A stretch of DNA of 7,812 bases, taken from IMG/VR virus record IMGVR_UViG_2711768009_000002; one strand, 5' to 3'. Made by a program: the position numbers and the translations under genes. How positions within the stretch are numbered: the first letter of the stretch is position 1; every line of letters begins with the position of its first letter. This document shows, piece by piece, positions 1-7,205 of the stretch. Under the pieces are notes generated by a model. It saw nothing but the letters and a program-made list of their open reading frames with translations. It searched no databases and was not told where the DNA came from. Source of the stretch: a virus (Duplodnaviria > Heunggongvirae > Uroviricota > Caudoviricetes).

Positions 1-108
1 CTCCAATGACTAGTCTAAAAACTAGTATTAAGACTATCACTTATTTAAGTGATACTGGTTGTCTGGAGATTCAGGGGGCCAGTCTAGTAAGGCTGCGAGA
101 GGTGAATA

Positions 109-480
109 ATGTCGCCATCATTACGCAAGGCTGTTGCAGTTGCTATTGGTGGCGGGGCTGTTGCTATAGCATCTGTGTTAATCACTGGCCCAGGTGGTAA
201 CGATGGTCTGGAAGGTGTCAGCTACATACTATACAAAGATATCATTGGTGTATGGACTGTATGTCACGGACACACCGGAAAAGACATCATGCCTGGTAAA
301 ACGTATACCGAAGCAGAATGCAAAGCTCTCCTGAATAAAGACCTTGCCACTGTCGCCAGACAAATTAACCCGTACATCAAAGTCGATATACCGGAAACAA
401 CGCGCGGCGCTCTTTACTCGTTCGTTTACAACGTGGGCGCTGGCAATTTCAGAACATCGACGCTTCTTCGCAAAATAAAC
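109..480 (+). CDS. SAR (signal-anchor-release) endolysin, T4-lysozyme-like phage lysozyme; 3' end lost in the N-run
   Basis: ATG at 109 with GAGAGGTG RBS at 97-104. Translation [51 protein letters not shown]... has a Gly/Ala-rich weakly hydrophobic N-terminal SAR segment followed by a lysozyme core with E-x8-D-x5-T spacing ([17 protein letters not shown]). From memory it is near-identical to phage 21 R and E. coli prophage SAR lysozymes. The ORF runs into Ns at 481, so the true end is unseen (about 165 aa expected). Confidence 0.88.
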
Positions 481-784
481 CNNNNNNNNNNNNNNNNNNN
501 NNNNNNNNNNNNNNNNNNNNNNNNNNNNNNNNNNNNNNNNNNNNNNNNNNNNNNNNNNNNNNNNNNNNNNNNNNNNNNNNNNNNNNNNNNNNNNNNNNNN
601 NNNNNNNNNNNNNNNNNNNNNNNNNNNNNNNNNNNNNNNNNNNNNNNNNNNNNNNNNNNNNNNNNNNNNNNNNNNNNNNNNNNNNNNNNNNNNNNNNNNN
701 NNNNNNNNNNNNNNNNNNNNNNNNNNNNNNNNNNNNNNNNNNNNNNNNNNNNNNNNNNNNNNNNNNNNNNNNNNNNNNNNNNNN
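481..784. other. Run of 304 N (assembly gap or masked sequence)
   Basis: Directly visible as n characters. It hides the endolysin 3' end and the 5' ends of Rz and Rz1; its true length is unknown. Confidence 0.97.
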
Positions 785-967
785 AAATGCCCTGTGCCAT
801 CCTCAGCCGAAACCTCCAGCGCCTCCGGCATGGGCAATGATGCCACCGTCGAACTCTCTCCAGTTGCTGGACGAAACGTTCTCGGTATCCGGGACGGAAT
901 CATCAGCGACCAGACAGCATTGAGAATGCTTCAGGAGTACATCAGGATCCAATGCCTTGGGGGGTAG
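785..967 (+). CDS. Rz: i-spanin Rz, C-terminal fragment (5' end in gap)
   Basis: Frame open from the gap edge to TAG 965-967. Translation ...GIISDQTALRMLQEYIRIQCLGG has a Cys near the C-terminus, as recalled for lambda Rz. It sits directly downstream of the endolysin and contains an embedded +1-frame ORF, which is the classic Rz/Rz1 architecture. Confidence 0.6.
   Translation, partial: KCPVPSSAETSSASGMGNDATVELSPVAGRNVLGIRDGIISDQTALRMLQEYIRIQCLGG
786..923 (+). CDS. Rz1: o-spanin Rz1 lipoprotein, C-terminal fragment, embedded in the +1 frame of Rz
   Basis: +1 frame relative to Rz, open from the gap edge to TGA 921-923. Translation ...HPQPKPPAPPAWAMMPPSNSLQLLDE... is proline-rich and resembles the PPPPPAW core of lambda Rz1 (recalled, not searched). 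Confidence 0.6.
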   Translation, partial: NALCHPQPKPPAPPAWAMMPPSNSLQLLDETFSVSGTESSATRQH

Positions 968-1055
968 CGGTAATTTTACTCATTATCCTTCAAATCAGAT
1001 TCTGTTGTCAGAGGAATGGGGGAAGCTGGATTCGCAAGAGCTTTTTATGGGCAGT

Positions 1056-1565
1056 TTAGCTAAAAAAAGGCAACACGAAGCTAAAACTACCAACATAAAG
1101 TGCTGACCAGCTAGCAGCTGAAATCAGACTCACTGTATACACTTTCACTGGATGAAGTTGCAACATTCCTGCCACCAAAGGAGCAATATAACGCAGCACG
1201 GCGATAAAGCGCGAAGTGAAAAGTATTGACACAGAGTTATTTTGCAACTGAAGGCGAACCCGTTCTATTGTATTGGAACGGCTTGATATTATACATGCAA
1301 GTTGAGGGATATGCCCAATTATTATACCAAGATGGTAATTAACGATAGTACCGCACCATGCGCCACTCATGACCGTGATTCCAGCTTCCCATGGTGAAAG
1401 AGTCGTCTTGCTGACTGTAATTACAGTGGCCATCATAATTGATGCTGGTGGCAATATCGCCGAAATGAGTAAAGTGGATTTTGTGAACGCTATTATAAAA
1501 AGAAGCCCCCATAGGCGATATGGATGAAGTACAAAATAGTTCATCAAAGCATTTATCCACTCCAT
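1056..1565 (-). CDS. Small multi-pass inner-membrane protein, DedA/VTT-domain family (YqaA-like); prophage moron
   Basis: Minus-strand ORF with stop TAA (revcomp of 1056-1058) and ATG at 1565-1563 (the ORF track starts it 1 codon earlier at TTG 1568). A GAAGGAAAG RBS lies 8 nt upstream (revcomp of about 1570-1578). The protein is very hydrophobic (4-5 predicted TM helices) and contains FTSRFIAVLRYIAPLVAGM, matching the DedA-family RF[IL]xx[IV]R..xP.VAG motif, plus an upstream STLLISAILPPAS segment recalling the YqaA ATLLPGNSE region. The gene is visibly AT-richer than the flanking phage genes. Confidence 0.5.
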   Translation of the reverse strand: MEWINALMNYFVLHPYRLWGLLFIIAFTKSTLLISAILPPASIMMATVITVSKTTLSPWEAGITVMSGAWCGTIVNYHLGIIIGHIPQLACIISSRSNTIERVRLQLQNNSVSILFTSRFIAVLRYIAPLVAGMLQLHPVKVYTVSLISAASWSALYVGSFSFVLPFFS

Positions 1566-1762
1566 CAATGTCTTTCCTTCTGTGAATTTTTCTTTGCTAT
1601 TTAACCGTGATACGACTTAATTTAGGCTTAAACACCTTACATTTACAAGGTACTCCTGTGGGGGGCCCTGCCACGGAGCGTCGCAGGAGTGAGTGATGAG
1701 GAAGAATTAAAGCAACCTATTGTGACAGGCAGCGATAACAGTAAATCACAGGAAGCATAATC

Positions 1763-2527
1763 ATGGCAAAACCGGACTGGGAGGCCATCGAATCGGCATA
1801 CCGGGCCGGAGTCCTTAGCCTCCGTGATATAGGCGAGAAATACGGCGTTACAGAAGGGGCTATCAGGAAGAGGGCCAAAAAGCTTGGTTGGGCACGCAGT
1901 GGCGGTACGCAGGTTTGCAAAAATGGTACGCAAAAAAGGAAAGTGCGTACCAGCAGAAAGCCTGCCATTACTGGCCTTACACAAAAAAGTACGCAACTAA
2001 AAACAGAATCTACACCGGATACGAAACCGATACGCGGAATGCGTACCGATCCCCCGACTAACCCATTCCAACCCGGTAACCAGCAGGCATTAAAACACGG
2101 TGGTTATGCCCGTCGCCTTCTGCTCAAAGATGAGGTGATAGAGGACGCTAAAGCGTTGACGCTCGAGGACGAATTATTTCGCCTTCGTGCTAACAACCTT
2201 GTCGCTGCAGAGAATATTGGTCGGTGGTTGGTGTCGCTGGAAGATGCTAATGGGGACCAGGAAAGGAAGATGCTGATTGAAAATATCAGCGCCGCCGAGA
2301 AAGCAATGATGCGCAATACAGTTCGTATTGAGTCCATCGTTGGCACGCTTGCGACGGTAGGAAAAATATTTGCTGATACAGCCTACCGCAAGGCCGCCAC
2401 TGATAAGGTGTCTCTGGAGGCTGATCGTCTTCGCCGTGATGCAGGTATTGATGATGGCAATGGAGAGCGTGACCTCAATGACTTCTACTCTGACATCCAA
2501 ACCGACGCTGAATCCGGCTTTACGTAG
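1763..2527 (+). CDS. Terminase small subunit (N-terminal HTH DNA-binding domain)
   Basis: ATG 1763 with AGGAAG RBS at 1749-1754; stop TAG 2525-2527. The N-terminus DWEAIESAYRAGVLSLRDIGEKYGVTEGAIRKRAKKLGW is a typical terminase-small-subunit HTH, followed by a basic linker and a coiled-coil-like C-terminal region. It lies immediately upstream of, and overlaps, the terminase large subunit gene. Confidence 0.6.
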   Translation: MAKPDWEAIESAYRAGVLSLRDIGEKYGVTEGAIRKRAKKLGWARSGGTQVCKNGTQKRKVRTSRKPAITGLTQKSTQLKTESTPDTKPIRGMRTDPPTNPFQPGNQQALKHGGYARRLLLKDEVIEDAKALTLEDELFRLRANNLVAAENIGRWLVSLEDANGDQERKMLIENISAAEKAMMRNTVRIESIVGTLATVGKIFADTAYRKAATDKVSLEADRLRRDAGIDDGNGERDLNDFYSDIQTDAESGFT

Positions 2528-3881
2528 TTTCTGGACTATGCGGGCACGTAACAAAGTGCTTTATGGTGGTCGGTCATCGTCAAAATCATGGGATGCCGCT
2601 GGCATTGCCATATTTCTGTCGAATAAATACACCCTGCGTTTTTGTTGTGCCCGTCAGATCCAGAATAAAATCGAAGAGTCGGTGTATACCCTGCTCAAAA
2701 TTCAGATAGACAGGTTTGGTCTGCGGCACCGTTTCCGTATTCTGAACAACAAAATCATTAACCGGGTTACTGGCTCGGAATTTGTTTTTTATGGATTATG
2801 GCGCAACATCGAAGAAATTAAGTCACTGGAGGGGATCGATGTGTTGTGGCTGGAAGAAGCCCACGCACTGACGGAATACCAGTGGAAAATTCTGGAGCCA
2901 ACGATCCGTAAAGAGGGTTCGGAATGCTGGTTCATATTCAACCCCGGACTTGTTACTGATTTCGTCTGGCGCAACTTCGTTGTTGATCCGCCCGAAGGCA
3001 CTCTCATCCGCAAAATTAACTATGACGAAAATCCGTTTCTGTCTGACACCATGCTTAAGGTTATCGACGCGGCGCGACGCCGTGATCCGGATGGTTTTAA
3101 ACATGTGTATGAGGGCGTTCCGGAGTCTGATGATGATGCGGCAATCATCAAACTGTCTTGGATAGAAGCCGCAGTGGATGCGCACAAAACGTTAAATTTC
3201 GAACCCAGTGGAAGAAAGCGTATTGGCTTTGACGTGGCTGACAGTGGTACAGATAAGTGCGCTAACGTTTACCGTCACGGATCCGTTGTTTTCTGGGCCG
3301 ACGAATGGAAGGCCAAAGAAGATGAATTACTGAAGAGCTGCCAGCGTACTTATCAGGCGGCGCTGGAGCGTGAAGCAGATATTGTTTACGACTCTATCGG
3401 TGTTGGTGCGTCTGCCGGTGCTAAATTCTCTGAAATTAACGCTGACCGGAAGAGCGAGAACGCATACGCGCGACGTGTGAATTACCAGAGGTTTAACGCC
3501 GGTGCTGGTGTGCATGAGCCAGATGACGAGTACAACGGCATCCCCAACAAAGACTTTTTCGCAAATCTTAAGGCTCAGGCATGGTGGCTGGTGGCTGACC
3601 GTTTCAGAAATACGTTTAACGCCATTAACAACGGAGAACAGTATCCTGTGGATGAGCTGATCAGCATAGATTCTCGTTGTCCGTTGCTTGAAAAGCTGAA
3701 ACTGGAACTGACAACACCTCATCGTGATTTCGACCGTAACGGACGTGTGATGGTCGAAAGTAAAAAAGACCTCGCAAAACGCGAGATACCGTCACCAAAC
3801 GTTGCTGATGCATTCATTATGGCCTTCGCGCCAATCGATACATCGCTGGATATCTGGGAACAGCTGGGGAGACAGGCCTGA
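2478..3881 (+). CDS. Terminase large subunit, PBSX/Terminase_3-like (ATPase plus nuclease)
   Basis: Long ORF in frame 0 ending TGA 3879-3881. P-loop-like YGGRSSSKS and Walker B-like IDVLWLEEAH are present, with an N-terminal LNPALRSFW...ARNKVLYGG region typical of this family as I recall it. The start is uncertain: ATG 2478 is chosen (GGAG at 2462-2465), with alternatives 2451, 2460 and 2538. The ORF-track start at 2370 would overlap terS by 158 nt and is not favoured. Confidence 0.85.
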   Translation: MTSTLTSKPTLNPALRSFWTMRARNKVLYGGRSSSKSWDAAGIAIFLSNKYTLRFCCARQIQNKIEESVYTLLKIQIDRFGLRHRFRILNNKIINRVTGSEFVFYGLWRNIEEIKSLEGIDVLWLEEAHALTEYQWKILEPTIRKEGSECWFIFNPGLVTDFVWRNFVVDPPEGTLIRKINYDENPFLSDTMLKVIDAARRRDPDGFKHVYEGVPESDDDAAIIKLSWIEAAVDAHKTLNFEPSGRKRIGFDVADSGTDKCANVYRHGSVVFWADEWKAKEDELLKSCQRTYQAALEREADIVYDSIGVGASAGAKFSEINADRKSENAYARRVNYQRFNAGAGVHEPDDEYNGIPNKDFFANLKAQAWWLVADRFRNTFNAINNGEQYPVDELISIDSRCPLLEKLKLELTTPHRDFDRNGRVMVESKKDLAKREIPSPNVADAFIMAFAPIDTSLDIWEQLGRQA

Positions 3882-5347
3882 TGGCACGAAACAAACAAGC
3901 CCTGCGGCGAACTGTGCAGGCCACAGCTGATGGTTATGAGAATTTTATTGCCCGCGTAGGGATGCAGACACCTAACCAGCACTCAGCATCCACCTACCGG
4001 GCTAATTTCACCAGTCGTAACCGCATGCTGGTGGAATGGTCCTATCGTTCATCCTAGATCATCGGCGAAGCAGTCGATGCTATCCCGGATGATATGACCC
4101 GCAAAGGCATTCGCATCACTTCGGAAATTGATGCAAAAGATCGTGGCATTCTCGAATCACAACTGGATGAGTTGCAAATCTGGGATGCGCTGAATGACGT
4201 GCTGAAATGGTCGCGCCTCTACGGCGGCGCGGTGGGTTTCATCATGATTGAGGGGTAGGCACCAATGACCCCGCTGCGACCCGAAACCATCGGTAAGGGC
4301 AAGTTTAAGGGGATTCTCCCGCTCGACCGCTGGATGGTCGACCCGGCACTGACCCGCCGCATTAAAGATATGGGGCCGGACCTGGGTAAACCTGAGTTTT
4401 ACGATGTGGTGACCACAGCAACGGGAATTCCTGCCTGGCGCATTCATCACAGTCGCCTGATTCGCTTTGATGGCGTCACGTTGCCATTTCAGCAGAAGAT
4501 GACCGAGAACGAATGGGGAATGTCGGTTGTAGAGCGTATCTGGGATCGTCTTACCGCGTTCGACAGCGCTACTGTCGGCGCGGCGCAGCTGGTCTACAAG
4601 GCGCATTTGCGTACCTACAGCGTGGAGAAGCTACGCGAGCTTATCGCACTTGGTGGTCCTGCGTATGAAGCGTTGCTGAAGAATATCGACCTGATTCGAC
4701 AGTTCCAGAGTAATGAAGGCATGACGCTCATGGACTCGCGGGATAAGTTTGAAACCCATCAGTACAGCTTCAGTGGTCTGGATGACATCCTTTCGCAGTT
4801 TGTAGAACAGATTAGTGGCGCTGTTGGTATCCCACTGGTGCGGTTGTTCGGACAGTCCCCGAAAGGATTTTCTACCGGTGATGCAGACCTTGCCAACTAT
4901 TACGATCGCATCAGTTCGTTGCAGGAGAGGCGTTTACGTCTTCCGGTGCGGCGGATACTGGACATCATGCATCGTTCGGAACTTGGCAAGCCGCTGCCGG
5001 ACGATTTCACGTTTGAGTTTAACCCGCTCTGGCAAATGTCTGATGTCGATCGCTCAACGGTGGCGTTAAACACCACCAACGCAATCAGTACGGCGCTGGG
5101 TGATGGTCTGATGACACTGAAAGCCGCTATGACTGATTTGCGAGAAAATTCTGACGTAACCGGCATCGGGGCATCCATTACCGACGAGGACATCGAGAAT
5201 GCCGAAGATGAAGCGCCGCCCGGCATCGGCGAACCTGATGACGAACCGCAGGAGCCGTCAGGCGGAAATCCGGTATCGAACCAGCCTACGCAGGATAGCG
5301 AGGGCGGTCGGAGACATCGTAAATGGTCGCTACGATGGTTCAAATGA
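3881..5347 (+). pseudogene. Portal protein gene interrupted by two in-frame TAG (amber) codons at 4055-4057 and 4256-4258
   Basis: ATG 3881 overlaps the terL stop (cTGATGg). A single reading frame runs 3881-5347 as 58 codons, TAG, 66 codons, TAG, 362 codons, then TGA 5345-5347, giving 488 codon positions, a normal portal size. The position between terL and the MuF-like gene is the canonical portal slot. Translation verified by hand: ...LVEWSYRSS*IIGEAVDAIPDDMTRKG...GFIMIEG*APMTPLRPETIGKGKF... Confidence 0.7.
4265..5347 (+). CDS. Portal protein, largest uninterrupted segment (360 codons from the first ATG after the second TAG); what an ORF caller would report
   Basis: ORF-track entry 4265..5347 in the same frame as 3881. 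There is no convincing RBS before ATG 4265 (upstream is ...attgaggggtaggcaccaATG), so I regard it as the distal part of the interrupted portal gene rather than an independent start. Confidence 0.45.
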   Translation: MTPLRPETIGKGKFKGILPLDRWMVDPALTRRIKDMGPDLGKPEFYDVVTTATGIPAWRIHHSRLIRFDGVTLPFQQKMTENEWGMSVVERIWDRLTAFDSATVGAAQLVYKAHLRTYSVEKLRELIALGGPAYEALLKNIDLIRQFQSNEGMTLMDSRDKFETHQYSFSGLDDILSQFVEQISGAVGIPLVRLFGQSPKGFSTGDADLANYYDRISSLQERRLRLPVRRILDIMHRSELGKPLPDDFTFEFNPLWQMSDVDRSTVALNTTNAISTALGDGLMTLKAAMTDLRENSDVTGIGASITDEDIENAEDEAPPGIGEPDDEPQEPSGGNPVSNQPTQDSEGGRRHRKWSLRWFK

Positions 5348-5981
5348 CAGTATCACGGAAATTATTGCGGCGCTGGAGCGTTACAGTGAAATCATCACCC
5401 CCTGGGCGACAAAGGTCGCGGAAAACTTTACTGCGGACCTAACCCGGCAGAACGAGAAAGTTTGGCGGCAACACAGCAAGAACATCAGTCGCGAGCTCCG
5501 CAATCTTGTGGAAAGCGCTCCTGTGGGCCAGGTGATGCAATCCATCATCGCCGAACAGGTCAAGTACATCAAATCTCTGCCTCTCGAGGCCGCAGACAGG
5601 GTGTACGACATCCAGAACAAAGCGATAGAGGCTGTTGTCACCGGTGGTCGGGCGGAGCAGTTTGCTAAAGAGATTGCATCTACCGGCGATGTTGCTAAGT
5701 CTAGGGCCGATCTGATTGCCCGAACGGAACTGGGAAGAGCAACGGGCGCGCTGGATATGGCCCGAGCGATAGCTATTGGCTCGGATGGTTATATTTGGCG
5801 TACAGCCGATGATGGCGATGTCCGAGATTCCCACGATCACATGAAAGGTAAATTCGTCCGCTGGGATTCACCTCCAACTTTGGACGGCATGACCGGCCAC
5901 GCGGGCGAGCTGCCAAACTGCCGCTGCTATAAAGAGATCGTGTTTGTTCGCGTTCCATTCGCAATGAAAAGGGCAGCATAA
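5199..5981 (+). CDS. Head morphogenesis protein, SPP1 gp7 / phage Mu F family
   Basis: The C-terminal half has the family hallmarks LIARTELGRA, DDGDVRDSHDHMKG and ELPNCRCY (ARTE, D-x-R-x-S/R-H, NCRC). Stop TAA 5979-5981. Start ATG 5199 has a GAGGA RBS at 5186-5190; alternatives are 5208 and 5238. No in-frame GTG/TTG start exists nearer the portal stop, so the 5' end overlaps the portal 3' end by at least 110 nt. Confidence 0.8.
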   Translation: MPKMKRRPASANLMTNRRSRQAEIRYRTSLRRIARAVGDIVNGRYDGSNDSITEIIAALERYSEIITPWATKVAENFTADLTRQNEKVWRQHSKNISRELRNLVESAPVGQVMQSIIAEQVKYIKSLPLEAADRVYDIQNKAIEAVVTGGRAEQFAKEIASTGDVAKSRADLIARTELGRATGALDMARAIAIGSDGYIWRTADDGDVRDSHDHMKGKFVRWDSPPTLDGMTGHAGELPNCRCYKEIVFVRVPFAMKRAA

Positions 5982-5984
5982 CCC

Positions 5985-7205
5985 ATGAAATACTTTTTTG
6001 AGACCAGGCTCGGGGAAACCCGATACCGCCTGGCTGACGGCTCGTTGCTGTGCAAAGACGTGCCGATAGGACGAACAGGTAAGCAGCTCTATGGTGCTGA
6101 TGACCTGCCAAAACTGAAACCCGATAAGTTCGGTGAAATAGTCGTCACGCGTTCTCCTGAGCAGGTATTCCATCCGGCCACGCTTGCCTCATTCGAAGGG
6201 ATGAGCATCACGATCCTGCATCCTGAAGATGAAAACGGGAATGTGCGGCTGGTAAATCCCGAGAACTGGAAAGAGCTTGCTGTCGGGCACCTCCAGAATG
6301 TCCGGCGCGGGACGGGTGAGCAGTCTGATTTGATGCTGGCTGACCTTATCGTCAAAGACGAAAGCGCCATTCAGCTTATCGAAGATGGCCTGCGCGAAGT
6401 GTCGTGCGGCTATGACGCGGAGTACGAGCAGACCGAGCCAGGTAAAGCCGAGCAGGTCGATATTACCGGAAACCATGTGGCTCTTGTCCCTAAAGGCAGA
6501 GCCGGAAATCGTTGTGCAATTGGAGACAGAGACACAATGGCAAATCAAAAGAAAAACTGGTGGAACCGCATGCGTGCGGCCATCAAGACAGGAGATGCCG
6601 ACACCATGAACGAACTGGTGGAGTCGGCTCCCGCATCGGTTACAGGAGATGAGGGGGATTTGCCGCAGGGCGTTAATCTCAACATCAACCTGTCCCCGCA
6701 GCAACCACTACCGGACAAAGCACCAGAGATGGGCGGAGATCCAACCGGCGACAGTGATGATGACCTCAAAACATTACTGAAAGCCCTGCTGGCTAAGCTG
6801 GAAAGAAATGCCACGGGCGATAACGATAATAAGCCTGACGATAATCCGACCGGTGACGGCGAGGACGATGAAGAGGAAACCACGATTACTGGTGACTCAG
6901 CCTGGCGTGCCGAAGTTATCGTTCCGGGTATCGATCTGAGCCGTAAGATGAAACCGACCGCGTTCAAACGCGAGGTTCTGGCTTCTGCTGACAAAACGCT
7001 GGTTCGCCAGATAGTCGGTGATGCGGATATCCGCAAATTACCGAAACAATCGGTCGACATGGCGTTTAATGCCGTGTCTGAGGTTGCCAAAGGGCGAAAC
7101 ACCCGCGCCACCACCGGCGATGCACAGCGCCTAAACATGGGCATGACCAGTATCGCTTCCCTGAACAAACAAAACGCTGAATTCTGGGCAAACCGTAAAG
7201 GGTAA
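5985..7205 (+). CDS. Head scaffolding-like protein (406 aa; N-terminal globular domain plus acidic low-complexity linker and C-terminal helical region), possibly DUF2213-type
   Basis: ATG 5985 lies 3 nt after the MuF stop; stop TAA 7203-7205. The assignment rests on position between the MuF-like and small head protein genes and on the acidic D/E/G/T-rich central region (GDPTGDSDDD...DNPTGDGEDDEEE) typical of scaffold-like proteins. No catalytic motif was recognised with confidence. Confidence 0.5.
   Translation: MKYFFETRLGETRYRLADGSLLCKDVPIGRTGKQLYGADDLPKLKPDKFGEIVVTRSPEQVFHPATLASFEGMSITILHPEDENGNVRLVNPENWKELAVGHLQNVRRGTGEQSDLMLADLIVKDESAIQLIEDGLREVSCGYDAEYEQTEPGKAEQVDITGNHVALVPKGRAGNRCAIGDRDTMANQKKNWWNRMRAAIKTGDADTMNELVESAPASVTGDEGDLPQGVNLNINLSPQQPLPDKAPEMGGDPTGDSDDDLKTLLKALLAKLERNATGDNDNKPDDNPTGDGEDDEEETTITGDSAWRAEVIVPGIDLSRKMKPTAFKREVLASADKTLVRQIVGDADIRKLPKQSVDMAFNAVSEVAKGRNTRATTGDAQRLNMGMTSIASLNKQNAEFWANRKG

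Follow-up and report, generated by a model that had tools for sequence, protein, structure and literature searches.

The stretch of DNA analysed here (the window), 7,812 nucleotides (nt) of the IMG/VR virus record IMGVR_UViG_2711768009_000002, carries between its lysis and packaging genes a single minus-strand gene that encodes a small membrane protein of the DedA family. The first-pass annotation of this DNA had described a very hydrophobic protein of 169–170 amino acids (aa) encoded on the strand opposite to every phage gene around it, and had proposed that it is an AT-rich moron for a DedA/VTT protein. The coordinates of the open reading frame and the quoted motif proved correct: all neighbours of the gene (lysozyme, the C-terminal part of Rz, terS and terL) are on the plus strand, the Rz end and the DedA gene are convergent, and the grand average of hydropathy (GRAVY) of the product is +0.87. 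We conclude that the gene is prophage cargo, i.e., a moron, of a lambdoid E. coli/Shigella prophage. The protein itself is already known by name, being listed in RefSeq as 'DedA family protein' (WP_011069285.1) in the matching prophages. The product of the gene belongs, as judged from alignments, to a narrow subfamily in which a conserved glutamate of DedA proteins is replaced by lysine.

The antisense gene and its prophage

The open frame on the minus strand (1056–1568) has 170 codons when counted from a TTG. In all homologues the first codon is the one after this TTG (M-E/A-W, MEW... in the window gene), and Kosakonia has TTC in its place. Since the homologues all begin at that codon, the likely start is the ATG at 1565–1563 and the product has 169 aa. 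The ribosome-binding site, which had been called strong, does exist with a spacing of 9 nt (AAGGA at 1579–1575), and its position is kept as GGAG or AGGA in homologues; we regard it as adequate rather than strong. The gene has a G+C content (GC) of 0.42, with 0.38 at third codon positions (GC3), compared with 0.52 for the rest of the window, 0.47 for the lysozyme gene, 0.57 for the Rz end and 0.51 for terS, in line with the lower GC noted earlier. The region between its start and terS (1566–1762) is 197 nt long, as had been counted.

Table 1 Features of the window, with their position, strand and supporting evidence
Feature	Position	Strand	Evidence or remark
IS2, terminal 86 bp	1..86	-	Found at 20,770 places in 4678 E. 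coli genomes; adjoins 'IS3-like element IS2 family transposase'
Phage lysozyme (RrrD-like)	109..481	+	Pfam Phage_lysozyme, 105 bits; RefSeq 'lysozyme RrrD' in near-identical locus L001
Rz-type spanin, C-terminal part ('lysis protein')	785..967	+	Pfam Phage_lysis, 30.6 bits (cut-off 25.4); L001 annotation
798-bp insert, moron cassette in E. coli and Shigella	958..1755		Local BLAST against prophages without the gene
Conserved DedA module	1046..1640	-	75 nt upstream, reading frame and ~10 nt past the stop
Lys-type minimal DedA/VTT coding sequence	1056..1565	-	169 aa; ATG 1565–1563; TAA 1058–1056
Shine-Dalgarno core AAGGA	1575..1579	-	9 nt 5' of the ATG; read from the sequence
-10-like hexamer TTAAAT	1599..1604	-	Position kept in Citrobacter, Enterobacter, Lelliottia and Huaxiibacter
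PhoP-box-like direct repeat TGTTTA-AGCCT-AAATTA	1618..1634	-	9/12 match; 12–13 nt upstream of the -10-like hexamer
Promoter candidate of the first-pass annotation (TTGTAA, 18 nt, TAAATT)	1619..1648	-	8/12 consensus match
Terminase small subunit gene (terS)	1763..2527	+	PHROG 370, 319 bits
Terminase large subunit gene (terL), PBSX family	2478..3881	+	Pfam Terminase_3, 131 bits; RefSeq annotation in L001

The window region matches prophages of a few E. coli genomes at 99.8–99.9% identity. In FDAARGOS_944 the prophage is integrated beside modC/ybhA, and its first part consists of an integrase, Rac-like early genes, a tRNA cluster and a DLP12-like holin/RrrD/Rz lysis cassette, followed by the antisense DedA gene, terS, terL, the portal gene and a contractile-type tail module. 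The gene thus lies inside a prophage and is not part of the chromosomal backbone, an origin that the first-pass annotation had named as a ground for rejecting its proposal. In the intact relative L001, four tRNA genes (Ile, Arg, Thr, Gly; 18009–18319) are located between a Q-like region and the lysis cassette; in an O121 strain, tRNA Val replaces Gly.

A survey of related prophages at the Rz–terS junction, which had been suggested as a check, showed that the cassette is missing in relatives. The cassette-free E. coli 2024CK-00474 (L002) and Klebsiella phage ST16-OXA48phi5.2 (L032) match the window at 785–957 and from 1756 onward, and the gap between Rz and terS in the former is 57 bp where the window has 798 bp. 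These limits were taken from local BLAST, as a global MAFFT alignment across the indel was uninformative. The whole cassette has a GC of 0.426. Within it, the conserved DedA module is 82% identical to a Citrobacter youngae prophage (L003) and 77% identical to Citrobacter meridianamericanus (L008), and homology ends exactly at 1046 and 1640; the right flank of the cassette (1641–1755) was found in 5 genomes and never without the DedA gene. This flank contains, upstream of terS, an inverted repeat with an 11-bp stem (ACTCCTGTGGG...CGCAGGAGT, 1651–1691), which is not significant, its fold energy being like that of shuffled sequences (z = -1.0).

In RMDEC465 the terS/TerL that adjoins this lysis module and DedA gene is a different one, and the C. 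youngae prophage has a 78%-identical copy, again antisense, between a lysis cassette with holin_8 and a GH19 endolysin and a lambda-type terminase. Two or more unrelated prophage backbones have thus received the small module at their lysis–packaging junction. The gene was acquired as a module of ~0.6 kb (the 75-nt control region and the reading frame), and the nearest relatives of this module are in Citrobacter and Kosakonia. In C. meridianamericanus (L008/L009, 7584–8510), a 74%-identical copy immediately follows a dinI-like gene and is surrounded by ordinary chromosomal genes; this copy may be a remnant of a decayed prophage.

The gene is located between modules inside a prophage, is absent from close relatives and deviates in base composition, and the proposal of an antisense, AT-richer moron between lysis and packaging genes was therefore borne out. 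The 595-bp gene module was found in 6 of 5426 complete E. coli genomes, and no close homologue was present among 50,697 phage records. At least 1000 contigs encode the exact protein, with Shigella sonnei, S. flexneri, S. dysenteriae and E. coli as the named sources, and 14 IMG/VR contigs carry the gene at 99% identity. One of the IMG/VR contigs (L022, 6603–8052) has ~1.45 kb without an open reading frame of at least 150 aa between the Rz end and the cassette, and in another (L030, 5814–6669 and 10136–10256) the Rz end and the cassette are ~3.5 kb apart and in inverted orientation to each other. Morons are classically found at the Rz–terS junction: DLP12 of E. coli K-12 has borD and ybcV there, antisense between rzpD/rzoD and nohD. 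The first-pass annotation had not known this family as a standard moron at this position, and the gene is indeed rare as phage cargo. Since we found no close copy among the phage records and no paper on a prophage-borne DedA protein in the literature searched, the gene is apparently a new type of cargo for this slot.

The prophages that carry the gene are partly damaged by IS2. The IS2 junction in the window is 23 bp before the stop codon of a class II holin gene (position 87 corresponds to L001 19192, within the holin coding sequence 18999–19214), and because the IS2 end truncates the holin, the prophage in the source genome is probably lysis-defective. In S. flexneri SFBU1023, E. coli ECMA0423, L018, L023, L026 and L029, terL is split by an insert of ~1331 bp at window positions 3141–3145; the insert (L035 2093–3423; L036) ends in the same IS2 terminus as window 1–86, and the flanking alignments overlap by 5 bp. 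Five of these six loci are otherwise collinear on both sides, and L026 was matched on the left side and the IS2 end only. The DedA gene is intact beside the IS2-split holin or terL. The 3' part of the lysozyme gene is hidden by a run of 303 N (482–784), which does not reflect the true length: near-identical loci have 409 bp there (L001 19587–19995, L019), comprising the lysozyme 3' end and the 5' part of Rz, presumably with Rz1.

A lysine-type subfamily of DedA proteins

The DedA/VTT identity proposed for the product was confirmed by the Pfam search that had been suggested for it: residues 42–162 match VTT_dom (PF09335) with 52.4 bits (gathering score 33.9; E = 9.3e-14), far beyond what chance would give for an antisense reading frame, and the domain is present in 19 of 19 homologues. 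The quoted motif RFIAVLRYIAPLVAGM aligns with RFIAFVRTLLPTIAGL of YqjA, and BLASTP against K-12 YqjA gave E = 3e-9 with the motifs in register. The protein is minimal, consisting of the VTT domain only. PADLOC returned no defence-system match, and PHROGs gave only a weak 31-bit match of the protein to an unannotated family.

An AlphaFold2 (AF2) model built on a 56-sequence alignment reached a predicted value of the local distance difference test (pLDDT) of 83.6 and a predicted template modelling score (pTM) of 0.79, compared with a poor model (pLDDT 56) from a 17-sequence alignment. It shows three long transmembrane (TM) helices and two helix-loop-helix hairpins (15–30, 32–35/41–52, 58–85, 111–118/124–134 and 139–168). 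The predicted order of elements is an N-terminal amphipathic helix, TM1, re-entrant hairpin 1 with an LPPAS tip, TM2, a pair of helices on the cytoplasmic side, re-entrant hairpin 2 (RFIAVLR) and TM3. Thus, the topology check asked for earlier gave a model that fits the published YqjA topology of three TM helices plus a pair of re-entrant hairpins. PDB searches found no solved structure of the predicted fold. In the viral structure library BFVD, only giant-virus 'SNARE associated Golgi' proteins resemble the protein and no phage protein has its fold.

The residues that matter in characterized DedA proteins can be placed in this alignment. In YqjA, E39, D51, R130, R136 and S52 are functionally important and located at the modelled lipid-headgroup site, and the dimer forms via the re-entrant hairpins (bioRxiv 10.64898/2026.09.20.752871). 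In UptA, R112 and R118 contribute to the binding of undecaprenyl phosphate (C55-P), and E32 hydrogen-bonds R118 (PMC11474028). The corresponding residues of the window protein are K29 for YqjA E39 and UptA E32, A41 for D51, S42 for S52, and R119 and R125 for the arginine pair (YqjA R130/R136, UptA R112/R118). Both arginines are conserved in the subfamily, R125 without exception and R119 with Lys in its place in two members. At the start of hairpin 1, DedA proteins typically have an acidic residue embedded in the membrane (YqjA E39/UptA E32). It is absent here: in an alignment of 57 sequences the position is Lys in 22 of 22 subfamily members and acidic in all 35 other DedA proteins (Glu in 34, Asp in one). 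The position of D51 is variable outside the subfamily too, so only the Glu-to-Lys change is diagnostic. The window protein is thus not a typical DedA protein, since the glutamate that is essential in YqjA/UptA is a lysine.

A word-indexed search retrieved 19 relatives only. An exhaustive profile search of 1.84 billion representatives gave 12 clusters at E ≤ 1e-30, all of ~170 aa, below which the score falls sharply to ~85 bits. The next tier consists mostly of N-terminal DedA domains that belong to a large class of multi-domain proteins of ~430–720 aa; in 8 of the 10 longer matches that we scanned, PAP2 phosphatase, LssY_C or both of these domains are present as well (P0038, P0040, P0043, P0045, P0047, P0072, P0086 and P0101). 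In a scan of one genome per species, the subfamily was found in 70 species, all of them Enterobacterales: nearly every Enterobacter species, Kosakonia, Citrobacter, Lelliottia, Huaxiibacter, Morganella, Proteus myxofaciens and Arsenophonus, including Arsenophonus endosymbiont genomes of 0.85–0.94 Mb. The GC of chromosomal copies is within ~5 points of their flanks (Enterobacter, Huaxiibacter, Lelliottia, Morganella), and that of the prophage copy is 8–10 points under its surroundings.

The ratio of nonsynonymous to synonymous substitution rates (dN/dS) was 0.15–0.24 when the window gene was compared with its Citrobacter or Kosakonia counterparts and 0.24 against the other (Citrobacter) prophage copy, and the window protein retains all residues that are invariant in the subfamily. 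These values indicate that the window gene is under purifying selection, also between the two prophage copies. The lack of conserved homologues, another of the outcomes that would have spoken against the proposal, was thus not observed, and the reading frame is not spurious. To summarize, the Lys-type DedA proteins of ~170 aa are a narrow subfamily of the Enterobacterales. No description of this subfamily or of its pairing with Mg2+ channel genes (see below) was found in the literature searched.

Mg2+ channel neighbours and the upstream region

In 39 of the 70 species loci, the Lys-type gene is adjacent to a Mg2+ channel gene, in three arrangements that involve two unrelated channel families. 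The mgtE gene is divergent from it in 25 Enterobacter/Lelliottia/Huaxiibacter loci and follows it on the same strand in 6 Arsenophonus loci, and corA is convergent with it in 8 of 8 Morganella loci, with the stop codons 7–10 bp apart; in Morganella the gene is located between rarD and corA (L085–L088, L092, L095–L097, about 5000–6470). An M-box riboswitch precedes mgtE both in Enterobacter (112 bits; L011 7673–7842, minus strand) and in Arsenophonus (108 bits; L014 8810–8979, plus strand). With two or three Mg2+ transporter genes among the few thousand of a genome, we consider it very unlikely that two independent adjacencies arose by chance, although this is our estimate and not a formal test. 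DedA proteins have been connected to divalent cations before: Mg2+ or Ca2+ rescues yqjA yghB mutants of Klebsiella, and in Xanthomonas a DedA protein was implicated in Mg2+ uptake (PMC10846249).

Upstream of the gene, DNA conservation begins 75 nt before the ATG. An invariant block, GGTTAAATAG, surrounds the -10-like hexamer in our alignment (A1), the hexamer being TCTAAT in some Enterobacter; from this conservation we infer that TTAAAT functions as a -10 element. No -35 match was present 17 nt upstream of TTAAAT. A direct repeat with an 11-bp period, followed by 12 nt and the -10-like hexamer, is a layout that recurs across genera, with the homologous repeats at -65 to -70. A PhoP box was defined as (T/G)GTTTA-N5-(T/G)GTTTA with at most two mismatches, ~12 nt upstream of a -10 element. 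By this definition, the repeat of the C. youngae prophage (TGTTTA-GGCTC-GATTGA) has two mismatches, that of other Citrobacter (TGTTGA-N5-GATTGA) has three, and those of Enterobacter (GGTTGA or GGTTTA-N5-CATTTA, and TGTTGA-GGGTT-TATTTA) have three as well. Half-sites of the form GTTgA occur in Shigella PhoP boxes validated by electrophoretic mobility shift assay (PMC5775216). That the PhoP-like site of the window is significant by itself was considered and rejected, as matches of such quality are near chance. PhoP control of the Enterobacteriaceae members of the subfamily is, on the conserved layout, a reasonable inference, and for the prophage copy in the window it is only a possibility. A search of the literature for DedA together with PhoP boxes found nothing relevant.

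In 22 Enterobacter loci, a perfect PhoP box with variable spacers is present at ~-104. This box (TGTTTA-N5-GGTTTA, L011 about 7897–7913) is ~55 nt upstream of the M-box, and its half-sites are conserved and its spacer variable in more than 20 Enterobacter species; mgtE of Enterobacter may be under dual control by Mg2+.

The first-pass annotation had proposed another promoter for the DedA gene. Its two hexamers are where they were said to be (1648–1643 and 1624–1619, with an 18-nt spacer), but with 8 of 12 matches the candidate is below the scan threshold and it is not conserved: TTGTAA is outside the shared module, which ends at 1640, and TAAATT overlaps the second half-site of the repeat and, in the Citrobacter copies, does not resemble a -10 element. 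On the minus strand of 1566–1762, no sigma-70 consensus promoter was detected by the promoter/terminator scan. Folding of 990–1060 and 1641–1700 on both strands gave z between -1.0 and +0.3, and Rfam at a permissive threshold found no match in the window, i.e., no riboswitch of its own or known small RNA for the DedA gene.

Proposed function, alternatives and known relatives

We consider it somewhat probable, judging from sequence comparisons, that the gene is a moron that serves the lysogen and encodes a Lys-type DedA protein handling lipid phosphates in a setting of Mg2+ limitation or envelope stress. The protein would be inserted into the inner membrane of the lysogen and would bind or translocate a phosphate-headed lipid, either a polyprenyl phosphate or an anionic phospholipid, whose phosphate would be held by the arginine pair. 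The canonical carboxylate-based coupling to protons or cations would be absent, and the lysine may stand in for the coupling ion, for which there are precedents in other transporter families. The physiological setting is suggested by the linkage of the chromosomal orthologues to M-box–mgtE or corA. The conserved promoter layout (direct repeat, 12 nt, -10, no -35) would be that of an activator-dependent promoter of the PhoP type. By lysogenic conversion, the host and not the lytic cycle would benefit. That the gene is common in Shigella and is kept in decaying prophages suggests such a host benefit.

Several observations weigh against this reading. The repeat in the window has three mismatches and falls outside the PhoP box definition, the window has 25 sites of this quality where 13.7 would be expected, which is no clear enrichment, and shuffling of the upstream region gives an equally good site in 26% of cases. 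This site is not listed in a genome-wide screen of S. flexneri 301 with at most two mismatches, and the orthologues from Morganella, Arsenophonus and Kosakonia have no comparable repeat. The perfect PhoP box of Enterobacter may serve mgtE and not the DedA gene, because the M-box–mgtE leader starts ~55 nt away from it. The corA adjacency is convergent and thus says nothing of co-transcription. Neither the scan nor folding of 990–1060 on both strands revealed a terminator after the DedA gene, so that transcription probably continues into Rz in antisense. The protein scored below the cut-off of every NCBIfam equivalog model, with 30.7 bits for PRK10847, the E. coli-type DedA equivalog (cut-off 236), and 19.5 and 16.0 bits for the UptA models NF052604 and NF052605 (cut-offs 250 and 300). 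Loss of the glutamate could mean that transport was lost rather than that its mechanism changed. Finally, E. coli has 8 DedA paralogues (PMC11474028), and given several of them the added value of one more in E. coli/Shigella is doubtful.

Could the protein be an ordinary, redundant DedA, that is, an undecaprenyl-phosphate flippase coupled to the proton-motive force like UptA, YghB and PA4029, in which the Glu-to-Lys change is neutral? It would then add capacity for recycling the lipid carrier, e.g., for O-antigen or 4-amino-4-deoxy-L-arabinose (Ara4N) modification. The conserved VTT domain with both arginines is consistent with this idea, as are the weak NCBIfam matches, which go to UptA models, the retention of orthologues in the small Arsenophonus genomes, and the nearest relatives outside the subfamily, which are the DedA domains of DedA-PAP2-LssY_C fusions (PAP2 includes undecaprenyl-pyrophosphate phosphatases). 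Nevertheless, we regard it as unlikely: the glutamate is essential in YqjA and aids C55-P binding in UptA, all 22 subfamily members and none of the 35 other DedA proteins have a residue of opposite charge in its place, the UptA equivalog scores are far under the cut-offs, and most loci are linked to genes for Mg2+ channels and not to cell-wall genes. A role in the service of the phage seems to us a little less likely again. The first-pass annotation had considered effects on host envelope physiology, superinfection exclusion or lysis timing, and of these the first is retained in the reading that we favour. Superinfection exclusion, lysis timing through the membrane potential, or heterodimers that alter host DedA proteins would fit a gene that adjoins the lysis cassette and is found at the same junction in two unrelated prophages, and mixed dimers are conceivable as YqjA dimerises through its re-entrant hairpins. 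However, the gene is antisense to late transcription, no defence-system match was obtained with PADLOC, and the orthologues are chromosomal (Enterobacter, Morganella, Arsenophonus), mostly with a GC near that of their flanks and in ~65 non-phage contexts. Because most members are chromosomal and the gene is intact in prophages that IS2 has made unable to lyse or package, which fits a benefit to the host, phage-serving roles are less likely than one in host physiology.

The gene might also be a functionless passenger from a Citrobacter-like donor, silent or decaying in E. coli/Shigella. The upstream repeat has a degenerate second half-site in the window copy, the carrier prophages are decaying, and the low GC of the gene is of the kind that in enterobacteria often goes with silencing by H-NS. 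We find a passenger improbable, however, since the frame is intact and 99–100% invariant on at least 1000 contigs, dN/dS is 0.24 even against the other prophage copy, and the residues invariant in the subfamily are all kept. A spurious hydrophobic reading frame, which only the antisense position would favour, is hardly conceivable in view of the Pfam match (E = 9e-14), the orthologues in 70 species and purifying selection, which refute it.

A bolder version of the favoured reading, a lysogen-serving DedA moron that handles lipid phosphates, would be that Lys-type DedA proteins are a distinct functional class in which lysine takes the place of the coupling carboxylate and which, given the links to M-box–mgtE, corA and PhoP-type promoters, is part of the response to Mg2+ limitation. 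Temperate phages would have captured one such gene together with its low-Mg2+ promoter and would spread it in Shigella and E. coli. We put this forward as a speculation with rather little confidence; if true, the gene would be a conversion factor for host compartments that are poor in Mg2+ and rich in antimicrobial peptides. DedA proteins are actively studied as flippases for lipid carriers and phospholipids and as determinants of polymyxin resistance. For this field, a natural subfamily with a conserved Glu-to-Lys change and a bare VTT domain is a ready probe of the coupling mechanism, and the repeated pairing with Mg2+ channels offers a concrete starting point for tests of how DedA proteins are linked to divalent cations, which is debated. 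The finding is of more interest for those who work on DedA mechanism than for phage biologists, for whom its interest is moderate.

Among known DedA proteins, YqjA and YghB of E. coli (PF09335) share with the window protein the VTT domain. The alignment with YqjA is ungapped through hairpin 1, and YqjA shares the RFIA..R...P..AG motif of hairpin 2, the arginine pair, the serine after the hairpin tip and the predicted three TM helices with two re-entrant hairpins. In contrast, identity to YqjA is only 24%, the window protein has 169 aa compared with 220 aa, its N-terminus being shorter and the C-terminal helix missing, E39 is replaced by Lys and D51 by Ala, and its gene is prophage-borne. The UptA-type flippases (UptA of B. 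subtilis, PA4029 of P. aeruginosa) belong to the same superfamily, and their two C55-P-binding arginines are kept in the window protein, whereas E32, the hydrogen-bond partner of R118, is Lys and the scores with NF052604 and NF052605 are far below the cut-offs. The DedA-PAP2-LssY_C fusions are the best-scoring relatives outside the subfamily (~85 bits); like the window protein, they have a domain that starts at residue 1–7 and a non-acidic equivalent of D51, and unlike it they keep the glutamate and extend to 430–720 aa with phosphatase and LssY_C domains.

As a moron, the gene is best compared with bor of lambda and borD of DLP12, which are likewise antisense, directly after Rz/Rz1 and before the packaging genes; the product of bor is an unrelated small lipoprotein. 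The upstream region of borD, for which vboR is presumably a synonym, has a perfect PhoP box (TGTTTA-GGGTT-TGTTTA), then 12 nt, then TACGAT. The gene vboR is listed as directly PhoP-regulated (PMC2789325). Thus, borD differs in having a perfect box where the window has a putative site with 9 of 12 matches. The bor and borD morons have their own promoter, and the layout of that of borD, PhoP box, 12 nt and -10, is the one conserved upstream of the DedA subfamily.

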